Shown: positions 53,156 to 54,108 of the stretch, one piece after another
Layout: each line of letters starts with the position of its first letter
Position numbering within the stretch: position 1 is the first letter of the stretch
Sequence record: PQ671644.1
Strand: one strand, 5' to 3'
Source of the DNA: Escherichia phage DCP80
Length of the DNA stretch: 64,000 nucleotides
Notes under the pieces: generated by a model
Database searches by the model: none
What the model saw: only the letters and a program-made list of their open reading frames with translations
Told to the model about the DNA's origin: nothing
Made by a program: the position numbers and the translations under genes

Positions 53156-53581
53156 ATGAACTTTCTGACCCTGACCTCTGCATTCTCTGTTACCCGCATC
53201 ACTAACAAAATGGTTGCTGACGAAGTATGTGAAATCTGCATTCGTGAAGATGCACTTATTCATCTGACTTCAACCCAGATTGTTGCCATCGCCAAGTCCC
53301 TTAATTCTGAACTGAAGGTAAACACCAAACAGTCAAAAGAATCTATCATTGAATTAATCCAAGCTGAAATGATTGAATTCCCAATTGAAGAAGTTAAAGA
53401 AGAAAAAATCCAGTCTAAATCTGGTAATGCTCGTGACATTTGCTTCCAGGCATTTGCAGAAATTGATATGAATGATAATGCAGCTCGTCGCGCTCTGATT
53501 GATGTTCTGGTTACCACCCATGATATCAAAAAGACCGTTGTTCAGTCATATGCATCCAACTTCCGCAAAGCTCAAAAATAA
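53156..53581 (+). CDS. Hypothetical protein, member of VQSYASNF C-terminal motif family
   Basis: 141 aa; C-terminus NAARRALIDVLVTTHDIKKTVVQSYASNFRKAQK. Confidence 0.5.
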   Translation: MNFLTLTSAFSVTRITNKMVADEVCEICIREDALIHLTSTQIVAIAKSLNSELKVNTKQSKESIIELIQAEMIEFPIEEVKEEKIQSKSGNARDICFQAFAEIDMNDNAARRALIDVLVTTHDIKKTVVQSYASNFRKAQK

Positions 53582-53589
53582 TTGAGAAA

Positions 53590-53660
53590 AGTGTTTTACT
53601 TCCAGGTGGGATAGTGTATAATTATCCCATACTGAGTTACCAAATAAACAAACGGGATAA
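53590..53660 (+). promoter_or_regulatory. Early promoter cassette, family A
   Basis: TTTTAC 53594-53599, 17-nt spacer, TATAAT 53617-53622, TATCCCATACTGAGTTACC leader. Confidence 0.6.
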
Positions 53661-53664
53661 TAAA

Positions 53665-54108
53665 ATGAAAACTTCAAAACTGGTTAAGTATGTTAAACTG
53701 GCATTAAACAACTCTTCTGAAGCTGAAGCACAATCCGCTGCACGTATGTTCTTCAAACGTCTGACAGCTGAAGGTATTTCATTTAACCCGGCAGTATTTG
53801 GTATCACTCGTGGCGAAGCTGCTAAACTGGCAACACTGGCAGGTAAAATTTTTAAAGGTCTGAATGATGGACAGGTTAAACCAGAAGTTAAACCTACTCC
53901 TAAATCTGAACCAAAAGCTGAGCGTAAGGCACCTAAACGCTCCGGTATGAGCAACAAAGATTTATGCTATGATATGTTCAAAACTGTCAATATGTCTAAT
54001 GGTGCCGCTCGTAGGGCTGTTATTGATATGATTGTGCGTGAGTTTGGATTCAACAAAGCATCAGTTCAGTCTTATGCTTCCAACTTCCGCAAAGAATTTG
54101 AAATTTAA
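53665..54108 (+). CDS. Hypothetical protein, member of VQSYASNF C-terminal motif family
   Basis: 147 aa; C-terminus GAARRAVIDMIVREFGFNKASVQSYASNFRKEFEI. Confidence 0.5.
   Translation: MKTSKLVKYVKLALNNSSEAEAQSAARMFFKRLTAEGISFNPAVFGITRGEAAKLATLAGKIFKGLNDGQVKPEVKPTPKSEPKAERKAPKRSGMSNKDLCYDMFKTVNMSNGAARRAVIDMIVREFGFNKASVQSYASNFRKEFEI

Follow-up and report, generated by a model that had tools for sequence, protein, structure and literature searches.

Three early proteins of a T4-like coliphage share a C-terminal domain with a predicted homeodomain-like fold

Three small proteins, referred to here as A, B and C, are encoded in the 64,000-nucleotide stretch of Escherichia phage DCP80 analysed in this study (PQ671644.1; hereafter the window), and they share a real, uncharacterised, phage-only domain family of about 50 residues. 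The three genes, which are listed with their parts and surroundings in Table 1, are early genes of a Gaprivervirus-type T4-like coliphage. From the predicted fold and the conserved residues, we tentatively infer that the domain binds nucleic acid via a homeodomain-like recognition helix and is carried by early regulators or host-takeover proteins, and we hold this reading with a confidence slightly short of even.

The original prediction recognised a common C-terminal motif in three small proteins, and pairwise BLASTP comparisons with compositional adjustment bore this out, giving E-values of 1e-17 for A and B (42% over 73 aa), 2e-12 for A and C (39% over 59 aa) and 5e-10 for B and C (45% over 51 aa). 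A domain HMM compared with the six frames of the window retrieved only A, B and C (E 1e-28 to 3e-24), the best match after them having an E-value of about 0.9. The near-identical tails described originally are indeed similar, although they are not a tail motif only; the similarity corresponds to a complete folded domain of about 50 residues. PHROGs 9997, 18416 and 17275 correspond to A, B and C, respectively, each with the annotation 'unknown function', and each of the three proteins matches the PHROGs of the other two via the C-terminal domain alone.

Table 1. Positions of genes A, B and C, their protein parts and adjacent features. Nucleotide positions are those of the window.
Feature	Position	Strand	Description and basis
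Terminator-like hairpin upstream of A promoter	53010-53037		GCCCCTTCCGAAAGGTTGGGGC then T-run; ends rnaC/rnaD region; read in sequence
A early-type promoter	53075..53112	+	GTGTACA, 18 nt, CATAATGATTCCAT; pattern with 0 mismatches and promoter scan
Gene A	53156..53581	+	ORF; 141 aa; = SP18_gp148 = phage 212 XPP61075; PHROG 9997, E 1.5e-71
A N-terminal domain	residues 1-78		Three strands and three helices (AlphaFold model)
A linker	residues 79-91		Low confidence; 84-89 disordered (AlphaFold model)
A shared domain	residues 91-141; 53426-53578	+
B early-type promoter	53595..53622	+	TTTACT, 16 nt, TATAAT, then TATCCCAT; promoter scan 10/12 matches; alignments
Gene B	53665..54108	+	ORF; 147 aa; = SP18_gp147; PHROG 18416, E 1.5e-92
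B N-terminal helical part	residues 1-70		Includes LALNNSSEAEA
B linker	residues ~71-95		Basic, Lys/Pro-rich
B shared domain	residues ~96-147; 53950-54105	+
Stem-loop and early promoter cassette downstream of B	54109..54179	+	Repeats; hairpin 54115-54134; pattern match 54120-54157
N-run, junction of unrelated blocks	54358..54362		Left: tRNA/e region; right: gene 55 region
motA 5' part (middle-transcription activator)	57723..57920	-	Phage 212/SP18 annotation; directly downstream of C; truncated by N-run 57668-57722
Gene C	57923..58138	-	ORF; 71 aa, shared domain alone; = SP18_gp274 = VR7ORF277c; PHROG 17275, E 9.6e-53
C terminator hairpin, early promoter and 5' UTR	58153..58254	-	Hairpin 58254-58237; promoter 58217-58180, pattern with 0 mismatches

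All three open reading frames were found at the coordinates originally given for them, and only the start of gene C required revision. Its reading frame had been drawn as 57923-58150 with a TTG start at 58150, but the ATG at 58138, which lies downstream of GGAG, is most likely the start codon, and both SP18_gp274 and the metagenomic homologues (P0001 and P0002) begin at MFT. The stop codon of C lies 2 nt ahead of the motA start. In phage EAWsc9 (PQ341120.1), the C orthologue at 67574-67750 overlaps a feature called 'thioredoxin'; no features of a thioredoxin are present in C, and the label is therefore probably an annotation error.

It might be argued that the similarity is meaningless and reflects chance or low complexity, non-coding ORFs, or a recombination scar spread with the promoter cassettes. 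This explanation is scarcely credible and has already been refuted. It can draw on the cassettes of A and C, whose identity exceeds that of the coding regions and points to recombination or conversion at these sites. However, the similarity extends over about 50 residues rather than a low-complexity stretch without significance, with composition-corrected BLASTP E-values down to 1e-17; full-length orthologues with 40-60% identity occur in distant phages; the motif varies synonymously; and the AlphaFold model of A, based on an alignment of 36 sequences, is confident (pLDDT 83.9). Different members encode the serines of the motif by either TCN or AGT codons, which indicates that selection acts on the protein. 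Conservation of the motif at the nucleotide level, where 29 of 31 nt are identical between A and B, was considered and rejected, because distant members use other synonymous codons.

Among 25 diverse members, C96, F100, V129, Q130, S131 and Y132 are invariant and M105, A133, S134, N135 and R137 are nearly so, while lysine or arginine is 84-96% conserved at residues 93, 112, 126, 137 and 138. The mean net charge of the domain is +3.5 (range +2 to +6), with a pI of 9.0-9.5. One face of the third helix comprises V129, Y132, A133 and F/Y136 with a spacing of i, i+3, i+4 and i+7, and presumably forms the core. The residues of the opposite face, Q130, S131, S134, N135, R137 and K138, are conserved equally well. 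These exposed polar and basic residues are invariant in the three paralogues and in phages infecting five host genera, which points to one conserved ligand; a common target would thus be expected for all members.

The sequence of this region corresponds to that of T4-like coliphages of the Gaprivervirus type, namely Escherichia phage 212, Shigella phage SP18 and VR7/VR20. The window contains 15 N-runs, roughly every 3-5 kb (at 2053, 7308, 12027, 16528, 24922, 29046, 33153, 36995, 40719, 44127, 47537, 50945, 54358, 57668 and 60917), and the blocks between them map to differing places and orientations in SP18 and phage 212, with neighbouring blocks tens of kb apart. The window is a shuffled concatenation of Gaprivervirus blocks, each about 3-4 kb long, joined by N-runs. 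The block at 51003-54357 equals phage 212 138502-141856 at 100% identity, the block at 54363-57667 is the gene 55/nrdH region (SP18 34.7-38.0 kb), and the block at 57723-60081 covers motA and gene 52 (SP18 from 163.9 kb on); the N-runs at 54358-54362 and 57668-57722 join blocks about 34, 67 and 164 kb apart in SP18. The gene order across N-runs is therefore meaningless and the neighbourhood there must not be read; C is not truly close to A and B, whereas A and B are real neighbours. In SP18, A (gp148) and B (gp147) lie just past the tRNA-rnaD/rnaC cluster and ahead of e.6, in a known plastic region, and C (gp274) lies between gene 52 and motA, as it does in phage 212. The SP18 annotation notes no JS98 or T4 counterparts of A, B or C.

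Two further features of the window were observed. The segments 12251-15628 and 44163-47536 represent the same 3.4-kb region (SP18 soc/gene 56/mrh area) in inverted orientation with 96.6% identity, and two further stretches of 750 bp (11272-12023 and 27964-28712) share 87% identity, so that the blocks seem to be drawn from more than one related strain. The non-coding segment 52720-53037 (+), between the tRNA cluster and gene A, matches 762 T4-like phage records, mostly at 80-99% identity (44 records at 99% or above, 201 at 95-99%), and carries the annotation rnaC/rnaD (stable RNAs) in phage Aplg8. A tRNA-like T-arm, GGTTCGAATCC, lies at 52948, and the hairpin and T-run at 53010-53037 close the segment; ARAGORN found no tRNA and no Rfam family matched in this segment, and Rfam over 51000-58400 returned three tRNAs and nothing else.

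Multiple alignment, HMM construction and wider searching yielded a conserved domain with further members in phages beyond the T4-like group. Because a word-indexed protein search with the domain profile gave only two C-type relatives, 1.84 billion cluster representatives were searched exhaustively with HMMER; this returned 14 matches, one of them spurious, leaving about 13 real clusters. A tblastn search of 50,697 phage records found the family in 33 Gaprivervirus genomes, one Shigella phage fragment (fPSFA), four ZZ1-like Acinetobacter records and Erwinia phage RF1, and BFVD added a Morganella phage, with all returned members uncharacterised. Full-length A homologues occur in Acinetobacter phage ZZ1 and Erwinia phage RF1. 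A motif-based pattern applied to one genome per species of 185,579 bacterial species found no bacterial copies. The few phage hits and the absence of such copies indicate a small family confined to virulent phages. The database names of members are 'hypothetical' or 'uncharacterized' throughout, the full proteins gave no match in Pfam or NCBIfam, and literature on PeSL, VR7/SP18, homeodomain-like T4 early proteins and DUF2786 yielded nothing on the A, B and C proteins.

The N-terminal parts had been described as unrelated, and they do differ between the proteins; they are, however, not random or variable, since the A-type and B-type parts are each a conserved family. The term 'variable effectors' was accordingly too loose for what are three recurrent architectures: A-type, B-type and domain-only. 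The A-type N-terminal pattern is FxxLTSAFSV ... VRxDAL ... QLVxIAKSMNSELKVNxKQSK, followed by a linker and the shared domain. The B-type pattern is KLxKYxxLALNNSSEGEA ... FNxxxFGxT, followed by a Lys/Pro-rich linker and the shared domain, and a variant of this N-terminus is found in two members (P0003 and P0006). The domain-only architecture is that of C; one example (P0014) resembles an A-type protein with an internal deletion. Protein A is acidic overall (pI 5.7), with a charge of -5 in its N-terminal part, and the corresponding part of B has a net charge of +11 and a pI of 10.3. The N-terminal domain of A possibly contains a helix-extended-loop-helix-like motif of the Rho N-terminal/SAP-like kind. 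For B, four of eight B-type N-termini match DUF2786 (PF10979) in the same register (12-34 of 40), although these matches are weak, at about 14 bits versus a gathering score of 23.9 (E 0.024-0.04). The EAWsc9 depositor labelled the B counterpart 'H15 domain-containing'.

Six divergent contexts contain both an A-type and a B-type gene. A is followed by B in Gaprivervirus and in another T4-like lineage (L005); yet another such lineage (L015/L024) has the order B, one gene, A; in Erwinia phage RF1 it is A, HNH endonuclease, B; in related 45-kb contigs it is A, a 44-aa ORF, B; and the sixth context is a 1-kb contig (L014). In the 45-kb phages, the A and B genes form a small opposite-strand island between packaging/structural genes and another leftward block. 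The HNH-type endonuclease gene of RF1 (3177-3680 of locus L003) is inserted between the A-type and B-type genes. A and B probably act as a pair.

Such pairing could mean that the domain is an oligomerisation module, by which A, B and C would join without any external ligand; acidic A might, for example, neutralise basic B in an antagonist or regulator pair. The co-occurrence of A-type and B-type genes in at least six divergent contexts and the opposite charges of the N-terminal parts are in line with this. On the other hand, A is found without B in the stretches read from Acinetobacter T4-like phages (L004, L023 and L025), C consists of the domain alone, and the most conserved surface is polar and basic, not hydrophobic. 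We therefore regard oligomerisation as a distinctly improbable explanation of the domain.

An early-type promoter precedes each of the three genes, as had been predicted, but the cassettes are the generic early promoters of this phage group rather than specific to the family. Matches to the motif GTGTACA-N18-ATAAT.AT.CCAT number 13 in the window versus 0.1 expected, and the motif also stands ahead of genes outside the family (54120, 57198 and 51166). A cassette specific to the A/B/C family was rejected on these grounds; the promoter marks an early gene in a plastic region and nothing family-specific. The cassette downstream of B drives the next gene (54191 onward), a non-family gene cut by the N-run at 54358. 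These early promoters are often preceded by a GC-rich hairpin. Over 81 nt including the UTR, the cassettes before A and C show 83% identity, far above that of the coding regions, which suggests cassette-mediated recombination.

The promoters of A and C (53075-53115 and 58217-58177) carry a second overlapping pair of elements, TTGACC, 16 nt, CATACT, 12 nt downstream of GTGTACA/CATAAT; the TTGA element is kept in A-type promoters of other phages, without a second -10. AATTGA recurs in the spacer of A-type promoters from distant phages, as seen in a handful of sequences, and this element is, speculatively, an operator candidate. Two other early promoters, 51166-51203 and 51500-51537, lie 334 nt apart and contain an internal inverted repeat, GATGGGATA ... 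TATCCCATC, over the spacer and the -10; this repeat type differs from the hairpin-upstream type at 54115 and 58237.

In the 45-kb Erwinia phages, A-type and B-type genes lie behind T4-type promoters (GTGTACA ... TACTATTATCCCATC). In RF1 (L013; 46 kb, unrelated to T4), promoters of the form GTGTACA ... TA.TAT.ATCCATCGAC are found at 17444-17500, 41088-41140 and 42150-42185; the A-type and B-type genes and one other gene lie behind them. The presence of T4-type early promoters in RF1 indicates that this promoter type is common to unrelated virulent phages. The promoter may have entered RF1 together with the gene, although the similar promoter at 17444 stands before an unrelated gene.

Structure prediction placed three helices at the C-terminal end of A, at residues 92-100, 108-122 and 126-140. 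An AlphaFold model from one sequence alone was of low quality (pLDDT 52) and was set aside. The fold matches are mostly DNA-binding homeodomains and BEN domains, and the predicted three-helix architecture superposes on homeodomains; a Foldseek search of the PDB with the two-domain model of A returned nothing below E 0.8. In sequence searches of the PDB, the only match of the family profile below 0.1 was the homeodomain 2da3, with an E-value of 0.044 for the full-length profile and 0.011 for the domain-only profile. In this alignment VVQSYASNyRK is set against VVQVWFQNTRAR, so that Y falls on W48, N on N51 and R on R53; the turn, at positions 39-41, lies at the same place in the model of A. N135 and R137, which are 84-92% conserved, thus occupy the positions of Asn51 and Arg53 in this weak HMMER alignment (E 0.011-0.044) and also in hhalign, where comparison with eight hand-typed homeodomains gave the same register with a probability of 4%.

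Apart from the borderline homeodomain, the PDB sequence search with three profiles returned noise, including BLIP and a LytTR fragment, 'VSQSYASYFRK'. Pfam searches of 25 domains, eight B-type and ten A-type N-termini gave scattered noise and the weak DUF2786 matches only, and even at E<=10 none of the 25 domain sequences matched Homeobox (PF00046). The hhalign probability and the lack of a Pfam Homeobox match led us to reject membership of the homeobox family. The domain is thus predicted to be homeodomain-like in fold without belonging to the homeobox family.

The original prediction spoke of a shared interaction or targeting domain. A shared module on differing N-termini is indeed what is found, although its target is better read as DNA than as a host protein, since the helix-turn-helix reading of the homeodomain-like model makes DNA the likelier target. 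The conserved lysine and arginine residues, the pI and charge of the domain, the basic linker of B and the possible motif in A make nucleic acid the most economical ligand. The domain would bind nucleic acid, most likely double-stranded DNA, with the invariant helix 3 (V-Q-S-Y-A-S-N-Y/F-R-K) as a putative recognition helix and the conserved Lys/Arg just before helix 1 as a candidate short N-terminal arm. At a common target, the differing N-terminal modules would provide differing outputs: the A-type module may act through an acidic beta/alpha domain with the helix-extended-loop-helix-like motif, and the B-type module through a DUF2786-like helical part and a very basic, histone-H1-like linker, while the C-type protein would be the bare domain, co-transcribed with motA. 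The role may be early control of transcription or DNA organisation, either in host takeover or as feedback on the phage's own early promoters. Several points count against DNA binding: the fold is small and has no significant sequence link to DNA-binding families, the net charge of the domain lies below that of classical homeodomains, and protein A is acidic overall.

Alternatively, the domain could be a protein-protein docking or targeting module that brings differing effectors onto one host protein, such as an RNA polymerase subunit, a sigma factor or a nucleoid protein. Many T4 early proteins work through binding host proteins, and C is co-transcribed with motA. The exposed polar helix, strictly conserved across phages of Escherichia, Shigella, Erwinia, Acinetobacter and Morganella, would fit a host partner as well as DNA, and the modest positive charge of the domain together with the acidic nature of A would suit docking. 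However, the fold matches are mostly DNA-binding homeodomain and BEN domains, the only sequence match, a weak one, puts the motif on the homeodomain recognition helix with Asn51 and Arg53 kept, and the partner modules resemble nucleic-acid binders. Docking onto a host protein is for these reasons considered rather unlikely.

A wider form of the DNA-binding reading would make the family a hitherto undescribed, phage-only class of homeodomain-like DNA-binding proteins, in which the A and B cassette and its T4-type early promoters are mobile between unrelated virulent phages (T4-like myoviruses and the 45-kb Erwinia phages). All members would then recognise one DNA element, either the AATTGA of the promoter spacer, which would create a self-limiting mobile regulatory unit, or a conserved feature of the host chromosome. 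We judge this wider form to be improbable.

In the plastic regions of T4-like phages, early genes mostly have no known function. From three 'hypothetical proteins' the present analysis defines a domain family whose proposed activity, DNA binding via one invariant helix, can be tested, and describes an A and B gene pair conserved between unrelated virulent phages. If the proposed reading is correct, the family would represent a new phage-specific DNA-binding module and a concrete case of gene-plus-promoter cassettes moving across phage lineages. Small modular early phage proteins of the helix-turn-helix type are a kind already known, and the A/B/C family itself is uncharacterised.

Compared with known systems, the cassettes resemble the promoter-early stem-loops (PeSL) of T4-type phages (Arbiol et al. 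2010, PMC2839356; Comeau et al. 2014, PMC4122927) in that a near-consensus early promoter comes after a stem-loop or terminator, and in that many copies are present in hyperplastic regions, flanking ORFans that vary among related phages; the hairpins at 53010-53037, 54115-54134 and 58237-58254 lie directly upstream of promoters. They differ in the group-specific consensus, GTGTACA ... [C/T]ATAAT.AT.CCAT, and PeSL denotes a DNA cassette, not proteins; the phages covered in PMC2839356 and PMC4122927 do not include those of this group.

The phage domain is like homeodomains (engrailed, Oct-1 and MATalpha2) in having three predicted helices that agree in length and order, a turn at the equivalent of positions 39-41, a third helix with Asn and Arg at the places of Asn51 and Arg53 in the HMMER/hhalign register, and a conserved basic residue ahead of helix 1. 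Unlike homeodomains, it shows no significant sequence relationship to them, has Y/A in place of the core W48/F49, carries an invariant Cys in helix 1, has a shorter helix 1 and a longer loop between helices 1 and 2, is far less basic and occurs in virulent phages only. The BEN domain (PF10523), known from animal chromatin factors and some DNA viruses, has no Pfam match to the phage domain; with about 90-100 residues it is about twice as long, and the structural match is partial, covering 57 residues.

Iyer, Koonin and Aravind are said to have described in 2002 modular phage and viral regulators formed by domain shuffling (Bro-N, KilA-N and ANT-type). The present family is similar in that one module of nucleic-acid-binding type is combined with varied partners in small, non-essential, mobile phage genes; it differs in that none of those domains was detected in A, B or C and in that it is far smaller and limited to a few virulent phage groups. 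The Aca (anti-CRISPR-associated) proteins are small helix-turn-helix autorepressors behind strong early phage promoters. Although A, B and C have no homology to Aca, they may be analogous to it as small, putative helix-turn-helix proteins placed right behind a very strong early promoter.
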